From contig NIVC01003577.1 of assembly GCA_002269645.1 (NCBI GenBank), forward strand, positions 1-64,000: a stretch of 64,000 nucleotides of DNA, written 5' to 3'. Below are positions 21,717-34,139 of this stretch, piece after piece; position 1 is the first letter of the stretch, and each line of letters starts with the position of its first letter. The position numbers and the translations under genes were made by a program. Source of the DNA: Macrostomum lignano. Its lineage: Eukaryota. Under the pieces are notes generated by a model. The model saw only the letters and a list, made by a program, of their open reading frames with translations, was not told the origin of the DNA and made no database searches.

Positions 21717-22074
21717 CGAGAGTCCGGCAGGGCAGCGGGCGCCTCTGCAGCAGATTTTATTGGCCCTGGAGCAGCTGCAGCGAGTTCCTTCTCACCCTGC
21801 CTGCTCAGATTGCGGCTGCTTTTGCTGGCTTGTGCGGCCGCCTCTGCCCAGCTTTCTGCCTCTCCCATTGGCTCTGAGGGAGCAGCAGAACTGCCGCAAT
21901 GTCAGTGCGTGGCTACTAAAAGCAGTCAGTGCGCGACTGCGGATTCTCTTGCAAAACGGATGCAAACAAAATTCCAAAAAAGAATAATATTTTTTTGCAA
22001 GCCAACTCCATTTATTGATTTCGAATTTCGAATTAGAAACTTATTTTTTGTGGTGAATCAGATTAGTGCAAACA

Positions 22075-22244
22075 TGTGACGGTGGACTTTTCTTTGTGCC
22101 ACCCCATTTTTGATAAGTCTATAAATACGCTCGTAGACCTGGTGCACGCCAGAGGGCGATACTTGTTTTCTTGGTTTTGGCTCAGTTAGGAGCCTTGGAC
22201 AATCAATATCATTCTTACGAGTATTTATTTACAAGAATGCAACA
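22075..22244 (+). repeat. 5-prime LTR (170 bp)
   Basis: TGTGAC...TGCAACA; identical to the 3-prime LTR except two short insertions and one substitution; TATA-like CTATAAATA. Confidence 0.95.
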
Positions 22245-23218
22245 TGGTGGCAGCGGTGCGGGCTCGAAGCACCCGTACAACCTGCGTTCCCAAGACGGGG
22301 CGCTCGGAGAAGGCTCCGAAGACAATGCTGAAGAAGCCAGCGGAATCCAAGATTCAGCTACGCTGGAGGGCGCGAATCTGATGGAGACAATGAAGATGCT
22401 CCTGACGCACCAGAGTCAGCAGCTACAAGAAATGACTCGCGCGCAAGAAAGACAGTCAGCATTCTACCTGGAGCAACTGGCTCGTCAGCAAGCGGAGTTC
22501 ACGAAGCTCCTGGCCGAGTCTAAGCCACGACCACAAGCAGCGGAGCCCAAGCTGTTTAAGCTGACGGACTCTGATGACATCGAGGCATTCCTAATGACCT
22601 TCGAAAGGGCAGCGGCATCGTGTGGATGGCAAAAGTCAGAGTGGACGATTCGGCTGGCACCGCTACTGACGGGCGTTGCGCAGAGCGCATTCCACAGTCT
22701 GACGACAGCGGCGAGCGCGGACTACGACTTGGCAAAGGCGACCATCTTAGCGAGATACAACATCGGCGAGGAGACCTACCGACAGCGGTTTCGGTCTTTG
22801 CGGAAGGCGCCTGAAGAGACCTTCCAGGTGTTCGCGACAAAGCTGGAAGACCTGTTTGTCCGATGGATGACAGCTGGGCTAGACGAGGATCAGAGAGAGG
22901 AACTGATAAGTGGCGACTCCATCGTCAGGCAGAAAGTGCTTCTGGAGCAGTTTACGGACTCTCTGACAAGAGGACTCCAGGTGTGGATGCGAGAGAGAAA
23001 ACCGAAGGACATCAAAGAGGCTGCGAAACTGGCCGATGACTACGCAATGGCAAGAAACAGCGACAAAAGCGGCGGAACACCAGGACACCCGAGCCAAGAG
23101 ACCTCTGAGGGGGCGACGGCGTCCAATGCTATGGATAAACAAAGGACGATTCAGACCGCAAAGCCTAAAGCCTAAGATTAGCTGCTTCAACTGCGGAGGC
23201 CCCCACAAGAAGTCTAAC
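22237..23218 (+). pseudogene. gag: Gag with SCAN-like capsid domain; zinc knuckle put out of frame by a 7-bp duplication and truncated
   Basis: DDIEAFLMTFERAA..W..RLAPLLTGVAQ...YRQRFR..LLEQF..L..GLQVWMRERKPK..EAAKLADDY. AAGCCTA is duplicated at 23161-23174; CFNCGGPHKKSN is cut at ~23218. Confidence 0.9.
22245..22258 (+). promoter_or_regulatory. Primer-binding site complementary to the tRNA-Leu 3-prime end
   Basis: TGGTGGCAGCGGTG immediately after the LTR is the reverse complement of CACCGCTGCCA-CCA, the eukaryotic tRNA-Leu(AAG/UAG) end. Confidence 0.8.
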
Positions 23219-23263
23219 ACCACCAACTAGTAGTCGATTATTTTTTTAAAAATTTCCTTAAAA

Positions 23264-23859
23264 ATGGATGCTCAAAATTCTCTTTATGATCCGAACGTTC
23301 CCACAGCACCTAGTGCACCTCAATATGAGCAGCAAAAACTCTCCCCTGTTATTACTTGTAACTCTCAACAATTTCGACTGGTGGAGATTAGAAAAATGCG
23401 AGATGACATTGAAAATTTTTCGACTATAGCAATATGCTTCTAGGATCTGTGTCTGTTCTAACTGGGTCTGCTGCAGCTGTCTCAACGTTGCCAGTCATCA
23501 CAGCCCCAATCGCAATCCCACTCGGCTCTGTGGGTGCTGCATGTGGACTTATTTCAGCAATTACTGGAGCATTAGCGCGAAACAGGCGAAAAAAACTAAA
23601 GCAGCTACAGGAGAAGCAAGTAAAAGAGAAAGGGGTGCACACTTCAATCATAGGGTACATTTCAAGGGCAATCGAGGATAAGTTCATTTCAGAGGATGAG
23701 TTCAAAACCATTCAGGATCTTTATGAACAATCAATTCGAATGAACTTGAACATGGTCGGTACTGATGACATGAGTCAGCTGAGAAATGAACTCGAGAAAG
23801 TTCTTCAACATTATGCGGAAAGAAGGACAACGAGAAGTACAACGAGGAATGCACAATGA
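23264..23859 (+). pseudogene. Polinton transmembrane protein (copy 2), internal deletion/frameshift
   Basis: MDAQNSLYDP start; ORF 23434-23859 has two hydrophobic segments and ISRAIEDKFISEDEF. Confidence 0.65.
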
Positions 23860-23863
23860 GCCC

Positions 23864-24265
23864 CTATGAAACACAGCCAAGAATAATTTCCTTGTAGGTC
23901 TTTCGTGTTTTGGTCATTGCATACAAAACAGTCATGCACAGCTCACCGCAAATATCACTGCTAAGACCTTGGAGAATAAAGTCTGAGCGATAAATTTTTT
24001 TATTATTTTTCCCCTTCATATAATTTCTTAGCTCTTCTGGTACTGCCTTCCCATAGCTATCAAAGTAATAACACTTGTGCTTGCGATCAGGATCAATCAC
24101 CCAGCAAACCCAATGAGATCCTGGCTTATCGGTGGTGTCAAAGTTCATGATGCCGCATTCTTTTCTTAGAGGAAAATCAGGCAGAGTGTCCCTCATAAAT
24201 ATTCCTCTAAAGTTTGGGATTTCCAGTTCGTTAGCCAAATCTTCAAGAAAGTTATTTGTTGTCAT
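23864..24265 (-). CDS. Adenain-like cysteine protease, intact (133 aa)
   Basis: FRGIFMRDTLP...GIMNFD...GSHWVCW (His), YFDSYG (Asp), QGLSSDICG (Gln/Cys). Confidence 0.92.
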   Translation of the reverse strand: MTTNNFLEDLANELEIPNFRGIFMRDTLPDFPLRKECGIMNFDTTDKPGSHWVCWVIDPDRKHKCYYFDSYGKAVPEELRNYMKGKNNKKIYRSDFILQGLSSDICGELCMTVLYAMTKTRKTYKEIILGCVS

Positions 24266-24344
24266 TTTTTTATGTCATTTTTAATGAGGTTTATTAAACT
24301 TTCTCTTAAACCTAAACCTAATCTCCACCTCCTAAACCTAATCT

Positions 24345-27300
24345 TCAGTGCCCGAACGGTAGACTGTTGATATTGTCATCAAAAATGAATCTCTTGTTAT
24401 CTGCACCTGACAGTCCAATCTTCTTTTGCTGAATTGTGTGAATAATATGGTTTTTAGATTGTAGCTTTGAGAACTCATGTGATGTCTTTTTGTTGCAATT
24501 CAAGGCGTCTCTGTATTCAGCTTCATTAATTTCCTTCCTAACGACGCGTTTCGGAATTCCCTTTGATTTTTTAATTGGGTCTGACGACTCACATTTTAAA
24601 AAATATGACTTTGCTCTCAACCCAATGAATTCAGTGATTATGTCACCAGCAATCTCGTCCTTCATTTTCCCAATCACTTTCTTGTTAGTGGCGTCAAACA
24701 CTTGATCGCCATTCTGTGTCCTGAAAGATTCATCATACTCAGACAAGTCAAACAAATCTTTTTGCTGCAGCATGTCCTGATAAATGTCTTCTGTTTGAAT
24801 GTCCATAATAAAACTATCCGTGTCAGTGTATAAGAGTTTCATTTTATCTTTGTACTGCTGCTTCATGTCATAGAAGAACTGGTACATCAAACGTTTTGAT
24901 TCGTCGAGAACAGTGACACCTGTATAGATCGGCTTGCGCAACGTCACCTTGGTTTTGTAAAATATGATCACACCCAAGTAGCTATTAAAGATATGGAGTT
25001 CTTTGAACGTTGGCTTTGAAATATTTGCCTGAATAACAGCAGGCTCTGATGAGGTAACAAGTTTCAGGTTTGTTCTTTTCCGCTCATTCTCAAGAGTCTT
25101 GCCATAGACAGAGTTGTTGGCTAACTTAAAGAGGTTCTTGTCAAAGTCGTTGGTTGCTTTGGTCCTAAACTGGGTGTTCTTATCAATGTAGGGTTTCATC
25201 CACGCTTCCTCTGTAAATGTAAGAGCCCTGTGAACTTTGGTGACCCTGCAACCAAGTGAGATAAAATACTGAAGCAGTTTGTAATGGATTTTGTAACGTG
25301 TCTTGTTGTTTAGATTCTGTGTTAGTTTCTCTGTATGTTCTTTTTCTGTTCCTGACAGGTGCCAAGTTCCATTATTATCATTGGGAGTTTCGATTATTTT
25401 CGGGCACTTTATGTTCTCTGGGAAGGGTGGAAAATCAGAGAAATAATCGTGAAGCTCTGGTGGAATGTAAACATCAACCTCATAAATGGCAGCCAATGAA
25501 AAGTCCCACTTTAGTTCTGATGAGGGTAGCCATCGAAAATCTCTAACTGGAAGATCTTGACTCATCGCCCAACCGTAGAGATTATTAGCGTCCAAGTAAG
25601 TAATGTAGTTTGAGGGCTGCTCCTTATTGTAAGATTCAATGTAGGGATTGTTTGCTTTTGCATATCTATGGGTGCAAATTGAGATCCCCCCTCGCTTTGA
25701 CGATTCGACAAAATTGTACATGTCAATGTCTGTAAGAAGTTCAATGTACCAATCTGGATCTTGATCCCATTTCATTTTAAGCAAAGATTCCCAGCTAGTG
25801 GCAGGCAGAGACACATAATGTGCTGGATCGAGGCCATATGCTGTGTACCAGGTATATCTGAAGGTTTCAAACACATCGGCCAGCAGAAACACATCTGTGA
25901 AGAGGTAAAGCAGGTGATACTGGAAGAAGTTTTGACAATTAAAGTAATTATAGACATGCTTCGCGTGCTCATAGTCTTTGTCAGAGATTACAGAGTCTGT
26001 TAGCTTTGAAAAGAACTTTTCTTGTGGTGGTAAACCATCTTCAAATACGTGATACCCAGTAATATTTTCATAGGGGTAGAAGCCTTTCTTTCTTAAAAGT
26101 TTAAATGATTCATCACTGTTGTTAATTTTACTTGCAAAAATCTTTGTATATGTACATTGTTCATCTTTTAGATTCTTGCTTAGTTCGTCTAGACTGGCAG
26201 CTAGAAATTGATATGAATCCTTCAGTCTTATTTTACCTGTACCCGAATTATCCTGTTTAATATCAACACACTTAAACTTCTCCTTGTTCTCTGCGATGCA
26301 ATCAAGGTGTATGTCTGGAATCATGCCAATTTTTTCAACTATTAAATGCATGTCATAGTTCTTTGCGTTGTGACAAAATATCGTTAGATCATGAATGTTC
26401 GATTTTAGCTTTAGATTACAGGTGTTATGCGCTGCACCTCTAAATTTCCCAGTAAAGTGGCAGTGGTCCCTAACGGTGGGGTTTTTAAAATCAGTGCAAG
26501 TTAACTGTTTCCTGCAGATGTGGCAATGAGTTGCTGATAGGAAATTGCTTTCATCCTCCTCAGACATACTTATTGGAATAGGTGCTAATCACTCTTTGCA
26601 ACTCTAACATTCTGGCAATAAACTGCTCCACACACTGCTGTCCAAAGAAATAATTATACTCAACAAGTCCTTTTGTAATAATAAAGGCATATGCTACTGA
26701 ATTGGGGACATGTCTTTGAGTTTGAGTTTGTTTTCAAGTTTGAGTTTGTTTTTGTTTTTGAGTTTGTTTTTGTGTTTCTGGCATGATTGAGCATTCGAAA
26801 TCAGCATATACAACAAATGGGAGCTTCTCCATCTTGTGATAGTTCTTAAACCGGAGATACTTCTCTTCAGCTGAAGGAAGAGAGCAGTTGGTCGGGTGAT
26901 CCTCGCATGATAATTCATGCTCTGCTAGTTTTTCAAAGCGTTCAGGTCCACTGTAATGCTTAAGGCACAAGCGGCAGATGGCAACAGCCTCGTGATGATT
27001 ATTCAATTGCTTGTGAATGAGTCTTGAAAGATCTTTAACCCAAACATAGTGAGCCTCCTCTAGTAAATTACCAATCACTAGAAGATCCACTTCAGTCCGC
27101 CTTTTCCCCTCAGGATCTAAAACGTCTTTGCTACATCTGACCGGTTGAACTTTCTCAGTTTTTTCACTCCACTCAAAGACTGTGATTCTAATTTTGTTAT
27201 TAAACACCTCTTCCAGCTTTGGGATCTGAGAAATCGCCAAGCCTCCTTTGTCAAACCTGATTCCCTTCTTTTCGCATTCAATGAGATAGTAGTTGAAATA

Positions 27301-28191
27301 ATTTTGATAATTTGAGGTTCTTTCAGGGTGGTGAGGGACACTATCATGAAGAAGTGCAGAAAGAACTGCCCATAGAGCACAGCAATTGTCTTTATTTTTA
27401 ACATTTATGCAAGCTTTTTTGCCGGCTAGCTTGTGTGGGAGCTCTATATAAGAGGAGGCTTTAAGTGGGTCATATTTCATGACCATGACAGTCGCTCTTT
27501 GAATCCCTCCTACGACCCATCCAGAACCTCTGGATGTAAACGCTTCAATTTTCTTAGTGACATCTTGAAGGAAAGGATCCAGTGTGTCTGTAGGGGTGAA
27601 TGGCTTTGCCTTTGTTGTCATGTAATACTCGAGATGCTCAGTGGGTTTTGCAGGCATATAAAATGCAATCTTGAATGATATCTGTAGTTTAAAGCTCTTG
27701 CTTGTTTTGAGTGTGTGATCAACAACTGATTGGATGCTGTCTTTATGGTCGTAGATGTTTGCGGTGGTACCGTTGGTGTCGTTAATTGGGATTGTGTACT
27801 CGATGTAATGTTCTGTAAACTTTCTCTGTGCAAAATTAATCTCTTCAATGGCAAGCTCCGACTCTTTTAAATGGATTAATTGCTCTAATTTCTCTTGTTC
27901 CTGCTTATTTTGTGGGTACTTTGCTTTTTCACCAGTGAGAGTTTCGTATTTGTTAACTAAGTTGCGACTCCTCTCTTGGTGTTCCTTTGCAGGATTTTGT
28001 ATAGGCGCATACTGGTTGGATTCTAATTGATTGATGATTTCCAACTGTTTTTCATAGCTTCCCAGGTGACCAGGGTCGGTGTTAAACTTTTGTTTACATG
28101 CTTCTCTTAGTAAATTACTTTTGTCTTGAAATGAGACGCCTTTTGAAAAATATTTGTTGACTAAATATTTTGCTGGATTGGCTTTTGGCAT
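24345..28191 (-). pseudogene. polB: Protein-primed PolB (copy 2): 485-aa N-part and intact 740-aa C-part, separated by one in-frame TGA and an 8-nt deletion
   Basis: All exonuclease and polymerase motifs are present. The TGA lies in a QT/QK-repeat insertion at ~26735; there is a deletion relative to copy 1 at ~26580. Confidence 0.96.
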
Positions 28192-28314
28192 TTTTTCTCT
28201 AAAATAAAAAAAAAATTTGAGGGTTACTACCCTGATAGAAAAGTTGAACTGTTTCTACATCCTATAAGTAGCGCTTGGTTTATGAAGCTGGATAAAGTGG
28301 GGTTTTAAACCTCA

Positions 28315-28771
28315 TCACATGCGCATTATTGTAAACCCAGCATTGTGTAGTGTCATGATAGCTTTGACAATGTCAGACTTGCTTACAGAATTTTCATGCT
28401 CAAAATCATCACGATCGGGGCAGCCCTCAGGGCAGTCCTCTCCTGCCTTAATTGTTATACCTTTATCTCTTGCAATCTTTTGCAATTCTAGCCGGTGGGC
28501 CTATCATTCCAGCTTTAACAGCAGTTGCTACACCTCCAGCTACACCACCTGCGGCACTTACAGCGCCTGCAATGATCGGAATAAGAGCTGCTAATGGTAG
28601 GATTCCTCCTGACTTTTCATCTGTGATGCTGTGTCTTTGTTCATTACACTGAACTATTTGCTGCGTGGGATCGATTTTTACTTTGATACCTTTAATTGAT
28701 ATAAGACCTGGTTTCTTTGATTCAATGATTTTATTGAGTTTATTGATGGTTCTGGTTTCAATCTTTGTCAT
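28315..28771 (-). pseudogene. pX-like core protein (copy 2), frameshifted
   Basis: Same KSGGILPLAALIPIIAG motif; single-base deletions near 28500. Confidence 0.7.
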
Positions 28772-28787
28772 TTTTTATTTTAATATT

Positions 28788-29827
28788 TTAATTAATTTCT
28801 GTGTCAGCTGGTATCACTAGCAGTTCAGCTCTAGTGAATGACCGCGTGGGGGATTTAGGGTTAAAGGCCTGAGATAAAAAGTAATAGTCACCGGAGTCGG
28901 AGGTAAAATGTCTGTCTATTTTATGTACATCAAGGCTGAAGTATGGATCTGTAGCTCTTCTTTTAGTGTCCTTCTCTAGCTCTCCAGGTAGATATAAAAA
29001 CCGTAGAAACTCAGAGTTTGTCAGTATGTATGGTGATTCAACTCCGGTAGCTTAGGGTAGTTAGAGGTGTGTTTTGTGTTGTGTGTGTTGTGTGGGGTTG
29101 TCGTGTTGTTGTCTGTTCTATGAGTTGCCTTAAGTTCGACAGTGTCTTGTTTAATTGCATGGGACGGTTTCAATCCAGTCATGCGTGTGACTTCATTGTT
29201 CAGTTGCTCTATAACAGTGGGGAGGCGGTCTGTCCATTTTGAATAGTACTGACCACTTTTTAGTTTCAGCTCTTCAGCTGTCTGCTGCTTAGTGAATAGC
29301 CTCTTGGCTAGAGTTAGATTGAATCTTTCCACAAAAGCCTGGTCTCTGTGCAAGTTTGTTCTGCCATAGCGAATCTCTGTGTTTTTCTTTTCCATAAGGG
29401 ATTTCACTGCACCCATGAATTCCTTACCCGGGTCGGTCATAAGGGTTTGGGGGTGTGTGAGCGGAGAGTTTTTATAAATATCTTGCAGTGCGCTGGCAAC
29501 AACCTCTGACTTCTTCGTCTTGAGTGGGCGAGCTTCCTTATATCTGGAAGCAATGTCTATTACTGTGAGAGCATACTTGTAGCCCGAGTCATTGGGGAGA
29601 AACAGAAGATCTGCTTGGTGTGCCTCATTAGGTTTATAAATACTGAAATGGGGCCTTTCAAATTTTACTGGTGGGAAATAGACTTGAAAGACAGCCTGCT
29701 TAGAGAGCCATTTTTCTACTGTAGCTTTTGGTTCCTTACTCAGCTCCATGAGTTTACTAACGGCATTTTTACCTACAAAGAATCCTTTGTCGCTGTAGTA
29801 GAGTTTTTTAAGTTTCTGATCTGTCAT
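28788..29827 (-). pseudogene. Polinton DDE integrase (copy 2); catalytic core open, one 1-nt deletion before the C-terminal domain
   Basis: 268-aa ORF with HQADLLFL, MTDPGKEF and FVERFN; shifts at PKLP relative to copy 1. Confidence 0.92.
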
Positions 29828-29857
29828 TTATTTAAAAAGAAAATTTTAAATAAAATA

Positions 29858-30341
29858 ATGCAGCGCTCTGGTGGTAAAATAGATTCACATGGACTGATAG
29901 AAAAGCTTCCTCATCCAAACAAAGGCTGGACACTTCCCGGCTATAAATATTGCGGGCCTTTGAATCCACTTGAAATACAGTTAGATAAAAACAATAATCC
30001 ACATCCTGGGCATGAGCCTGTGAACGAGCTAGACTCTGTCTGCATGTGGCACGACGTTAAATATAGAGATTTTCCTGAGGAGAAGAATCGCTGGACAAAG
30101 AAATGCTCAGGAGACTCGACAATATGGGGATTTCACGCGGTGGAAGGAATCGATCGCTCGGAAGCTAGTTAAAGCTGTTATTTTTGGTAAGAAAAAGCTG
30201 GGGTTGGGAATGGACGTCGAGGGTGAGTGTTTGGGAAGAGAGGGCGAGTGCACGGGGAGAGAGGGCGAACGCAAGGGAGCCGGGTTTATTTTGTGCGCTC
30301 CTAACAATGACTTGGGAAGGCTCTTGAAAGATATGGGGTAG
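29858..30341 (+). pseudogene. Parvovirus-type PLA2 protein (copy 2), frameshifted after the catalytic domain
   Basis: MQRSGGKIDSHGLIEKLP...YKYCGPLN...MWHDVKY; 1-nt deletion at ~30093. Confidence 0.85.
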
Positions 30342-30427
30342 AGAGAGCGCGCGTGGGGGGAGAGAGATTTTCACTTTAACTGAGCCCAGCCGAGGAAGAA
30401 TTCCGTCTCGAGGGAAGGCCAGAATGC

Positions 30428-30492
30428 AAACGATTTCGGCCTCGCACGAGGCCAAAATGAAAACGATTTCGGCCTCGGGCGAGGCCAAAGTG
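30428..30492. promoter_or_regulatory. Two tandem 33-bp units, each containing the palindrome GGCCTCG-NN-CGAGGCC
   Basis: Palindromes at 30438-30453 and 30471-30486, between convergent ORFs. Function is inferred only. Confidence 0.5.
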
Positions 30493-30518
30493 AAAAGGAT
30501 TTTGGCCTTTCTGTTTTT

Positions 30519-30761
30519 TTAACGCAATTGCTTAATGATTTCTGCAAAGTTATAATAGCTATCGTAATCTTTTACGTAGGGTACTCCATACTTATGAAAC
30601 CAGTGTCTTTGGAGAGCTAGATTAATATTAGGGACATTGATATCAACGTCGGGCCAATATTTTCTCATGTACTCGCTGCATTCTAGTTTGCATTGGTACT
30701 TGGATTTGTACAATGGATGAGGCTGAGTATAATAGGAACCTGGAGAGACAACTGGAAACAT
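30519..30761 (-). CDS. Small Tyr/Trp-rich Polinton hypothetical protein, intact (80 aa)
   Basis: Open frame with A-run ATG context; N-half conserved in copy 1. Confidence 0.55.
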   Translation of the reverse strand: MFPVVSPGSYYTQPHPLYKSKYQCKLECSEYMRKYWPDVDINVPNINLALQRHWFHKYGVPYVKDYDSYYNFAEIIKQLR

Positions 30762-30989
30762 TTTTATTGAGAATTTAATTTTTTTCAAAGGGTAAGGACC
30801 CTGGGTTAGGGGATTTAAAGTTTTAGGGATGTGGTAGCATGTTGCAAATTGAATGTGGGGAGAAGAATGCAGATTATTTTCTGATTGTTTCGAATATGCT
30901 ATGGGTGGATGTCAGTGGATGATGTAGGACACTTGTTATGCTCTTATTCTGTCGTGGAGGAAGGAGGATAGGTTAGGAGGATAGGTTAG

Positions 30990-33347
30990 TGCGACAAGTG
31001 TCAGAAGACGGCTCGAGTCCCAGGCAATCACAAGGTACCACTAGTCCAAGTGCCTGGAGTGGAGGAGGCCTTCACCAAAGTTATCATCGATATCAGTGGA
31101 CCGTATACGAGGACTGCGAGTGGTCACCAGTACATCCTGTCGATTATCGATGCGGCTACTCGATTCCCCGAAGGAGTCCCGCTGCGAAAGATCGACGCTG
31201 AGTCCGTAGCGAAGGCATTGGTGGACTGCTTCGTGAGGACCGGATTCCAGAGGGAGATCCAGAGCGATAAGGGTACTAACTTTTCATCAGCACTGCTGCA
31301 GGCCCTGTACCGGTGTACCGGGGTCGAGGGCATCCAGTCGACGCCGTACCATCCGCAAAGCCAGGCGTTGGTGGAGAGGTTCCACGGCACTCTCAAGAAT
31401 ATGTTGAGGAGACTACCAGCTCGCGAGAAAAAGAAGTGGGACCAGTACCTACCGTATCTGCTGTTCGCCATTCGGGAGGTGCCCAACGAAACAACTGGCT
31501 TCTCCCCATTCGAACTTTTGTATGGACGCACTGTGCGGGGACCGCTAGATCTACTGCGGCAGACCTGGGATGAGCAGCTCTCCGAAGAGAAGAAGGACAT
31601 CATCTCGTTCGTGCTGGCCCAGAGAGACCGACTGCGGGCTGGCCAGGAAGCGGCACGGAACAGCGAAGAGCTAGCACGGAAGCGTCAGAAACTCTGGTAC
31701 GACCGGCAGTCGCGGGAACGAGAGTTGCAGCCCGGAGATCAGGTGCTGCTGCTGCTGCCATCGTCATCCAAGAAGCTTCACGCTGAATGGCGCGGTCCCT
31801 ATGAAGTACTGGAGAGGTGCAGCGATGTGAACTACCGGATTCGGATGGGCCCTGCGACAAACACGTTTCATGTCAACCTGCTTAAGAAGTACAATTCACG
31901 AGAGGCGGTTTTGATGCAGCTTCCAGCGGCAGCTACGAGTGCTCCTGAGTTGTCCGAACATCTGACACCGGCCGAGAGAGATCGTCTCCTGCAGCTGGTG
32001 CAGGACTTCGCGGGCGTCTTCAGCGAGATCCCGGGCAGGACTGACCTAGTGGAGCACCGTATCCGGACGACATCTGACCGCGTAGTGCGCATCCGGCCGC
32101 GACGGGAGCCGCAGGCGCATCGGCAGGTGCTCCAAGAGGAGATTCAACGCATGCTGGACCTCGGGGTGATCGAACCATCTGACAGTGACTACTGCTCCCC
32201 GGTCTGTCTGGTGGCCAAGAAGGACGGCTCAGTCCGGTTCACTGTCAACTTCAAGGCGCTGAATGAGCTGGTGGCCTTCGACTCCTATCCGATGAAGAAC
32301 ATCGAGGACCTACTGGAGCGGGTCGCCAAGGCCAAGTTCATATCTAAGCTAGACTGCTGCAAGGGCTACTGGCAAATTCCACTGTACGAGGATTCAAAGC
32401 GATTGACGGCTTTCGCGGCCTGCGGCAAGCTGTATCACTTTACTGTGATGCCCATGGGCTTAAACTGCAGCAGCGCGACGTACCAGAGGCTCATGGACAA
32501 GCTGTTCCAAGGGCTGGACAACGCGGAATCCTACATCGATGACATCGCCGTGTTTAGCGCGACATTCGAGCAGCACGTCAAGGACCTGAGGGAAGTATTT
32601 GGTCGCCTTAAGGCTGCCGGTCTAACGGTGCAACCCCGAAAGTGCTACCTGGGCGGCAACTCTGCTGACTACCTGGGTTTCAAGCTCGGCGGAGGCGAGA
32701 TCGGTACAAGCGAGGACCGAGTGCGGACAATCACGGCGCTGGCTCAGCCCCGGACCAAGGCTCAGCTGCGATCTGTGCTCGGAGTGCTCAACCACTACCG
32801 TCGGTTCGTGCCCGATTACTCAGAAAAGGTGGCGGCCCTGACGGACCTCACGAAGAAGTCGGCACCCGATGACCTGACGGCGGCCTGGGGAGAGCAGCAG
32901 ACGCGAGCCTTCGAGACTGTGAAATCTCTGCTGGCGAGCGAGCCGGTGCTGCGCGCGCCGGACTACAGTCGGCAGTTCACCTTGGAGACTGACAGCTCGG
33001 AGACTGGGATCGGCGCGGTGCTAACGCAAGAGTTCGAGGACGGCATCCATCCCGTGCTATTCGTATCTCGGCGGTTGACTTCGGCGGAGCGGAGCTACGC
33101 GACGATCGAGAAGGAGTGCCTCGCCGTGCGCTGGGCGGTCGAGAAGCTGCGGCACTACCTGCTAGGCCGCCGGTTCGTCATCAAGTCCGACCATAAGCCG
33201 CTGCAGTACCTGCAGATGGACCACGCCAACCCACGACTCCAGCGGTGGGCCTTCTATCTGTCCGGCTATGACTACGAGATCCAGTACCAGCCAGGCGAAA
33301 GCAACACGGTGGCCGATGGTCTCAGCAGGATCTGGGCTAGTGACTGA
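30990..33347 (+). pseudogene. pol: Pol, 5-prime truncated: integrase (from the CDKC half of the Zn finger) - RT - RNase H, uninterrupted frame
   Basis: INT: IIDISGP, SDKGTNF, PYHPQSQALVERFHGTL, GPY motif. RT: SPVCLVAKKDGSVRF, KLDCCKGYWQIPL, YIDD. RH: DSSETGIGAVL, EKECLAV, SDHKPL, NTVADGLSR. Confidence 0.96.
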
Positions 33348-33516
33348 CTAAGTGATTTAGTGACTGACCAAGTGATTTAGAGACTGACTGAGCGATTTAA
33401 CTTTTATTAAAGTCGTTAGTGGCCAAGTTTGCATTGTTTTTTTTGTAAGACATATCCGAACTTTGCGTGACCCTGCGATTGATTTTTGGCTTGCGATTTT
33501 TCCGGCTTCGATCTTT

Positions 33517-33526
33517 TGGTGGAGGG
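33517..33526 (+). promoter_or_regulatory. Polypurine tract
   Basis: TGGTGGAGGG directly before the 3-prime LTR. Confidence 0.65.
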
Positions 33527-33682
33527 TGTGACGGTGGACTTTTCTTTGTGCCACCCCATTTTTGATAAGTCTATAAATAGACCTGGTGCACGCCAGAGGG
33601 CGATACTTGTTTTCTTGGTTTTGGCTCAGTTAGGAGCCTTGGACAATCAATATCATTCTTATTTATTTAAAAGAATGCAACA
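33527..33682 (+). repeat. 3-prime LTR (156 bp)
   Basis: TGTGAC...TGCAACA followed by the TSD AAACA. Confidence 0.95.
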
Positions 33683-34139
33683 AAACATAAACAGCTGGGG
33701 CACATTACATTATCGTATTGTTAATTTAGTGTTCTGCTCAGACTCAACTACAAAACTCGAACTGCTACTCAACAGTAGTCAGTGAGTGCTTTCACAAGCC
33801 CACAGCTGGAAACTCCACGAGTTCTACGAAATGAGAACGGAGATGAGAGCACTGTGACATGATGATTTGGGAATTTGGCAGATCCAGAAACCAGGAGGCG
33901 AATTGCGAAATGAGTAGTTTAGAAATTCACTGAATCAACCGCTGGCCAGCTGATGGATGCCTTCTGAGGTAAACGAAGCCAACATTGATGACCTGCAGGC
34001 CTTCGAGGCTTCCTTCGATGCCCCTGCAATCGCAAAACTGAAGCAGAAACGTTTAAAGTTTGTCTCAAGTTTGGTTTTAATCAGAATACCAATGCAAAAA
34101 TATCTGAAGTCACAGGCAATACTCTAATGCAATCTCTAA

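Follow-up and report, generated by a model that had tools for sequence, protein, structure and literature searches.

We analyzed a window of 64,000 nucleotides from Macrostomum lignano (assembly GCA_002269645.1, contig NIVC01003577.1, positions 1 to 64,000), in which a Gmr1-type long terminal repeat (LTR) retrotransposon spans W22075-33682 and encloses 7.8 kb of Polinton genes. Here, W denotes a window coordinate and C-numbers denote contigs of the genome assembly (764 Mb), which was the single assembly searched. The hybrid is most readily understood as a retrotransposon copy that received a Polinton by ordinary integration and was later trimmed by deletions.

A retrotransposon shell around half a Polinton

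The shell contained both LTRs, a primer-binding site, a polypurine tract, and an AAACA target site duplication (TSD), as described in the initial annotation of this DNA (Table 1). Also in agreement with that description, the two LTRs differed by 1 substitution in 156 bp besides 2 footprint-like insertions of 8 and 6 bp at TA sites. Five of 12 pattern matches to the primer-binding site were scanned, and all 5 were tRNA-Leu genes of the genome. The SCAN domain in gag was identified as PF02023 (E=5e-14) in a Pfam search, and the gag frame stopped at W23175, ahead of the zinc knuckle, in the window as well as in C1414, a contig described below; the knuckle, which had been listed as retained near 23218, is thus not part of the frame. 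The Pfam domains in the pol remnant were arranged in the order integrase, reverse transcriptase (RT), RNase H, with matches to RVT_1, RT_RNaseH, and RT_RNaseH_2 and no match to RVT_2. The proposed absence of the aspartic protease and the integrase N-terminus was borne out by alignment to intact members of the family, which placed the missing segment at 916 bp. The GC content was 0.56 to 0.57 in the retrotransposon parts versus 0.40 in the insert.

The insert was 98% identical over 801 bp to the nearest Polinton copies. It had been described as a set of intact genes, and all 5 were recognized by Pfam, with an open protease frame and an open DDE core in the integrase; pPolB, however, was broken, and the pX, integrase, and PLA2 frames were shortened. 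An in-frame stop in pPolB near W26735 was common to the window and C1414, whereas a break near W26585 was found in the window only. Some of the shortened integrase, pX, and PLA2 frames, as judged against C1414 or the full copy in C616, may be assembly indels. Among 11 frames searched against Pfam, 8 either had a match at the curated cut-off or were expected to have none, and 3 were without a family; one gave a sub-threshold match only. The genes for the ATPase and the capsid belong to the half of the Polinton that is lacking from this copy and that, in full copies such as C616, encodes an A32-type ATPase and a double-jelly-roll capsid protein. The insert and C616 together show that the source family has the Polinton/Maverick set of pPolB, integrase, protease, ATPase, and capsid genes. 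Measured against an intact Polinton, with 2 terminal inverted repeats (TIRs), a TSD, the full gene set, and open frames, the copy in the window has lost half of the element and has a broken pPolB. An AGTAGT motif at W23229 was considered as a Polinton terminus and rejected, the corresponding sequence being internal in relatives.

Table 1. Positions of the features of the hybrid element in the window
Feature	Position	Strand	Remarks
TSD AAACA, left copy	22070..22074	+	same 5 bp in C1414
5' LTR, 170 bp	22075..22244	+	two TA-flanked insertions (8 and 6 bp), neither in C1414
gag with SCAN domain	22237..23213	+	zinc knuckle cut at 23213
Primer-binding site	22245..22258	+	14-nt match to tRNA-Leu 3' end, added CCA counted
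Left junction (23213/23214), retrotransposon position 1127 joined to Polinton middle	23207..23220		common to both alleles
Retained half of Polinton/adintovirus-like element	23214..30982	-	90-94% to four full copies over most of length
Polinton open reading frame (ORF), no family assigned, interrupted	23268..23859	+	
Adenain-like cysteine protease (PF00770, Peptidase_C5)	23864..24274	-	open frame; H/D/C residues visible
pPolB (PF03175, DNA_pol_B_2), broken	24345..28254	-	
pX-like core protein (PF05829, Adeno_PX)	28463..28774	-	103 amino acids vs 153 in C1414
Polinton rve integrase (PF00665)	29021..29827	-	DDE core open; early end, 268 vs 346 amino acids in C1414
Parvovirus-type PLA2 domain (PF08398, Phospholip_A2_4)	29858..30172	+	frame shorter than in relatives
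Inner part of Polinton TIR	30525..30982		matches both ends of full copies
Right junction (W30982-30989), 6-nt filler	30983..30988		filler copies sequence 13 nt upstream; window only
pol remnant: integrase from CxxC on, RT, RNase H	30989..33347	+	785-amino-acid open frame without own start
Short polypurine tract	33518..33526	+	as in other members of the retrotransposon family
3' LTR, 156 bp	33527..33682	+	
TSD AAACA, right copy	33683..33687	+	

Junctions, alleles and relatives

The overlap at the left junction was 1 nt if exact and 5 of 7 nt if imperfect, and the Polinton sequence at this point was internal in 14 of the 15 relatives inspected, the remaining locus having no match to the search motif. 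A pattern for this junction, with up to 2 mismatches allowed, matched 2 places genome-wide, the window and C1414, and a DNA search likewise gave 2 matches spanning it among the 40 that were scored (best 40 of 289 candidates). The right junction of the window occurred once in the assembly. The matches of the DNA searches with the left and the right junction (best 40 of 289 and best 40 of 601 candidates) divided cleanly into one retrotransposon family and one Polinton family. The proposed genome search for the 2 junctions therefore led to a single site, and no carrier with a different TSD was found.

C1414 aligned to W15368-36631 at 98% to 99% identity, with the same TSD and with both flanks in common. 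When the right flank of the element was used as query, 2 of 23 matches were 100% identical, the remainder being at most 93% identical and mostly partial. The window and C1414 are 2 alleles of one site and not 2 assemblies of one molecule, because a second Polinton near W12667 is absent from C1414, which has an empty site there. The insert differed between the alleles by 7 substitutions in 7,761 bp and by 16 indel events; together with the near-identity of the LTRs, this agrees with the suggestion that the events were recent, in relative terms. Neither a third haplotype nor an empty retrotransposon site was found in the assembly. C28 was considered as a third haplotype and rejected, since it overlaps the start of the window and ends there.

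The allele in C1414 contained 598 bp that were missing at the right junction of the window. This segment consisted of the outer 282 bp of the TIR, ending in the family terminus and kept in C1414 only, followed by 316 bp of retrotransposon sequence. The sequence after the terminus started at position 1727 of the intact member C268, with an identity of 359/364, and this position (amino acid 588) falls in the linker between the protease and the integrase. The junction between terminus and retrotransposon was unique in the assembly; a second match to its pattern, with 2 mismatches in C604, was unrelated AT-rich DNA. In a check of read contigs over W30800-31180 (4 of 24 listed runs, from four studies), none of 32 out of 704 pieces bridged W30982-30989 and no joint was indicated, the pieces being mostly of about 60 bp and the region multicopy. 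The runs listed as containing the sequence included no RNA run, a result without bearing on expression.

The left-junction search identified 16 loci of the retrotransposon family among its best 40 of 289 candidates, namely the window, C1414, and 14 others; 14 of the 15 loci outside the window were examined, with C1042 left out. Based on TSDs or flanks in common, the examined loci and the window collapsed to 11 insertion sites. Intact members were about 4.76 kb, with 5-bp TSDs and one gag-pol frame, which was open over 1,477 amino acids within the element in C268 and C464 (2 of 13 members) and which in C268 had the Pfam order protease, H2C2, rve, RVT_1, RNase H. BLAST detected no insert sequence in any of 12 other full members, and C1049 and C1042 had the normal 916-bp spacing at the place of the insert; Polinton DNA was thus absent from this place in all 14 other loci.

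Origin of the hybrid and its prospects for movement

We interpret the locus as one Gmr1-type copy with half a Polinton, formed by normal Polinton integration followed by 2 deletions, present at one genomic site and likely immobile, and we put the probability of this reading at about 0.92. The retrotransposon evidently inserted at AAACA. A Polinton would then have integrated at retrotransposon position 1727, in the protease-integrase linker; one end of this event is visible as the terminus that survives in C1414, and the other is presumed. In C1414 the natural terminus abuts an unbroken target, as would be expected after an ordinary integration. A deletion would subsequently have fused the central part of the Polinton to gag at position 1127, before the split of the alleles, since the left junction is common to both. 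It would have removed 599 bp of the retrotransposon, one TSD copy, one TIR, and about 6.3 to 6.9 kb of the Polinton with the ATPase and capsid genes, a size obtained by arithmetic on 3 full copies (the fourth, C70, has extra sequence). Finally, the window allele alone would have lost 598 bp, including the outer TIR and the integrase N-terminus, which left the 6-nt templated filler. Polymerase-theta-type end joining typically leaves fillers templated in this way. The lack of a Polinton TSD at the window copy would then be due to the deletion, which removed the terminus. Insertion plus deletion had been named as the simplest history in the initial annotation, correctly in our view.

Several points weigh against this reading. 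Integration is visible at one end only, because the other TSD copy and the other junction between Polinton and retrotransposon are lost, and an allele with an undeleted Polinton was not found in the assembly. By chance alone, this Polinton family would be expected to land in this retrotransposon family only some 0.02 times if 15 loci are assumed, a weak argument given that the family was chosen post hoc. Furthermore, the right junction specific to the window rests on one contig, and the searches covered one assembly and scored the best 40 candidates in each DNA search.

Because neither junction in the window alone is a Polinton end and retrotransposon sequence is missing, the locus had been described as a replacement rather than a nested insertion, with templated repair as one of its possible sources. 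Under such a history, Polinton DNA would have been copied into a break, replacing retrotransposon sequence without any integrase, and a Polinton of the same family does lie 9 kb upstream. However, the exact terminus joined to unbroken retrotransposon sequence at position 1727 in C1414 argues strongly against both the replacement and the repair, and the upstream neighbor is only 94% to 95% identical to the insert versus 98% for copies elsewhere, for which reason it was rejected as a template. We consider templated repair hardly credible. An assembly error at the right junction of the window, in which case both alleles would resemble C1414 and have a single deletion, is a more realistic concern, albeit an unlikely one. 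The junction occurs once in the assembly and adjoins a TIR with internal tandem repeats, and the 16 indel events versus 7 substitutions between the contigs in the insert include many 1-nt indels of the kind typical of long-read error. On the other hand, the filler precisely copies the sequence 13 nt upstream, a pattern known from polymerase-theta-type end joining, and further changes, among them the 2 LTR footprints, are private to the window allele. Such an error would affect the last deletion only and would leave the verdict of nested integration, deletion, and a single site unchanged.

As far as can be judged from its sequence, the remnant cannot move as a Polinton, because there is no terminus in the window and only one TIR and terminus in C1414, the capsid and ATPase genes are gone, and pPolB is stopped; nor, with gag broken and the protease gone, is it predicted to be a unit that can retrotranspose on its own. 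A different possibility is that the hybrid, as a non-autonomous LTR unit, arose at another locus and reached this site by retrotransposition, with its left deletion produced by a template switch during reverse transcription, or that intact members are able to copy it in trans even now. The LTRs, primer-binding site, and polypurine tract are intact, the 2 members with open gag-pol frames are potential helpers, and the microhomology at the left junction, although weak, is compatible with such a switch. Yet the hybrid has a single TSD, its 2 carriers have common flanks where at least 2 sites with different TSDs would be expected, and no donor locus was found among the 16 family loci. Had a donor contained the entire Polinton, its transcript would have had to be about 20 kb long. 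Moreover, the sense strand of the insert contains 6 AATAAA and 5 ATTAAA motifs versus 0 and 1 in the intact C268, from which a transcript of 11.6 to 12.2 kb is predicted to be cut short. We regard this alternative as very improbable, and see an equally slim chance that a unit of 11.6 to 12.2 kb is copied in trans by intact members, moving via RNA the half of a DNA virus that serves replication and processing, with more copies in individuals or haplotypes outside the assembly. The initial annotation, which had raised a mobile 11.6-kb chimera, held that occurrence at one TSD only would make it a dead one-off nested event; both carriers indeed have one TSD and both flanks in common. Among the records listed in a literature search (20 of 59 and 5 of 5), the titles and the openings of abstracts showed no mobile Polinton-LTR chimera, which is a weak negative.

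Transposons commonly end up nested and then partly deleted, and the hybrid has little significance as it stands. If it were mobile, it would allow genes of DNA viruses to spread through reverse transcription. The second allele keeps the intermediate state and makes the locus a clear worked example, from which it follows that a missing TSD in one haplotype is no proof of a non-integrative origin. A more useful by-product is the recently active adintovirus-like family with its pair of filled and empty alleles.

The element families, the surroundings and known systems

The Polinton family was represented by 519 exact terminal motifs genome-wide, or about 260 elements, and full copies were 14.9 to 16.5 kb, with TIRs and 6-bp TSDs. 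Perfect 6-bp TSDs were found for 7 same-contig pairs among 30 sampled ends, and additionally in C616 and C2541. The second Polinton of this family in the window occupied W1-12667, with the remainder at C28:379305-387872, and was complete across the 2 overlapping contigs. Its TSD was CATCTG and the empty site was located at C1414:33046; this filled/empty allele pair shows that the family is polymorphic and therefore recently active. A Gypsy-type pol was present within 1.5 kb of 1 of the 30 sampled ends, as determined from outward flanks of 1,480 nt with the retrotransposon polyprotein as query, and this small sample and single query thus gave no sign that the family targets LTR elements. At C45:416277-417904, the RNase H of a different Gypsy-type pol was followed after 225 bp by a Polinton terminus, possibly a second nest of this type; no continuation was found beyond the element. 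It was also noted that several pairs of terminal motifs were less than 1 kb apart (C32, C87, C124, C289), possibly TIR-only derivatives. The full Polinton at C70:214728-231264 had its extra sequence in the capsid half, with frames that appeared retrotransposon-like by eye, possibly a reverse nesting, and C975:125715-130630 contained 2 inverted pPolB stretches, 98% identical and about 3 kb apart, corresponding to a rearranged Polinton.

Nested elements of some kind were observed at 4 of the 11 insertion sites of the retrotransposon family, the hybrid site included. Related DDE_Tnp_4 elements, probably Harbinger-like, were nested at C2323:68073-74445 and C672:97317-100538/C1049, and the one in C2323 held an RT element; a 7.2-kb gap in C2323, considered as a second Polinton capture, was explained by this composite. 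In C558, a 0.4-kb inverted-repeat element was nested that was missing from the twin locus C1040. The insertions in the 5' LTR of the hybrid (W22124-22133 and W22215-22222) were short and flanked by duplicated TA, with cores of 4 to 6 nt beginning with CG or ending with TCG or CG. TA-flanked insertions were also seen in the 3' LTRs of C55 and C600, and the same TA was hit twice independently. Judged by their sequence, they resemble the footprints that a TA-targeting cut-and-paste transposon would leave on excision; no LTR still carrying such an element was found, the 3 matches in the assembly all being footprints.

Elsewhere in the window, dense minisatellite arrays with units of 8 to 78 bp covered W13180-21790, W34026-35000, and W38300-64000. 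An open frame at W20098-20694 on the minus strand, with ankyrin-like repeats by eye, was located among the tandem arrays upstream of the element.

LARD and TRIM elements, and errantiviruses with env, likewise have intact cis signals on either side of cargo that is foreign or non-coding, but they are multicopy with different TSDs; unlike these, the hybrid is found at one TSD. The shell is placed by its domains among the Gmr1-type Ty3/Gypsy elements, with the integrase upstream of RT, a Gypsy-type RT and RNase H, a SCAN domain in gag, TG..CA LTRs, a 5-bp TSD, and a tRNA-Leu primer-binding site, although in this copy gag is broken and both the protease and the N-terminus of the integrase are missing. 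Gmr1 is defined by an integrase upstream of RT (Goodwin and Poulter 2002, as cited in PMC8220671), and SCAN is found in over half of Gmr elements, being common but not universal (PMC4131045). Mavericks have TIRs and 6-bp TSDs, and most are degraded (PMC8097293). The insert resembles Polintons/Mavericks of an adintovirus-like kind with PLA2, having pPolB, an rve integrase, an adenain-like protease, and pX, to which the full copies add the ATPase, the double-jelly-roll capsid, TIRs, and 6-bp TSDs; unlike intact Polintons, it is only half an element. Adintovirus genes include PLA2X, a PLA2 with a C-terminal pX-like domain (PMC8502044). PLA2X is a feature of alpha adintoviruses; as judged by Pfam, PLA2 is present here and pX is encoded by a separate ORF, with no pX domain recognized in the 244-amino-acid PLA2 frame of C616. 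Alpha adintoviruses also have a PolB of the PF03175 class with an N-terminal OTU-like domain; pPolB here matches PF03175, and a 506-amino-acid N-terminal frame has no Pfam family. The family ends, AGTAG..CTACT, are close to but not identical with (AGT)2, the motif given for elements of vertebrates. A Polinton-like virus nested in a retrotransposon is described for Cafeteria, where an EMALE virophage lies inside an Ngaro retrotransposon (PMC8547959). As presented there, the usual direction in that system is of the retrotransposon into the virus, with targeting; in M. lignano, targeting is not evident (1 of 30 ends), and the host is an LTR element.

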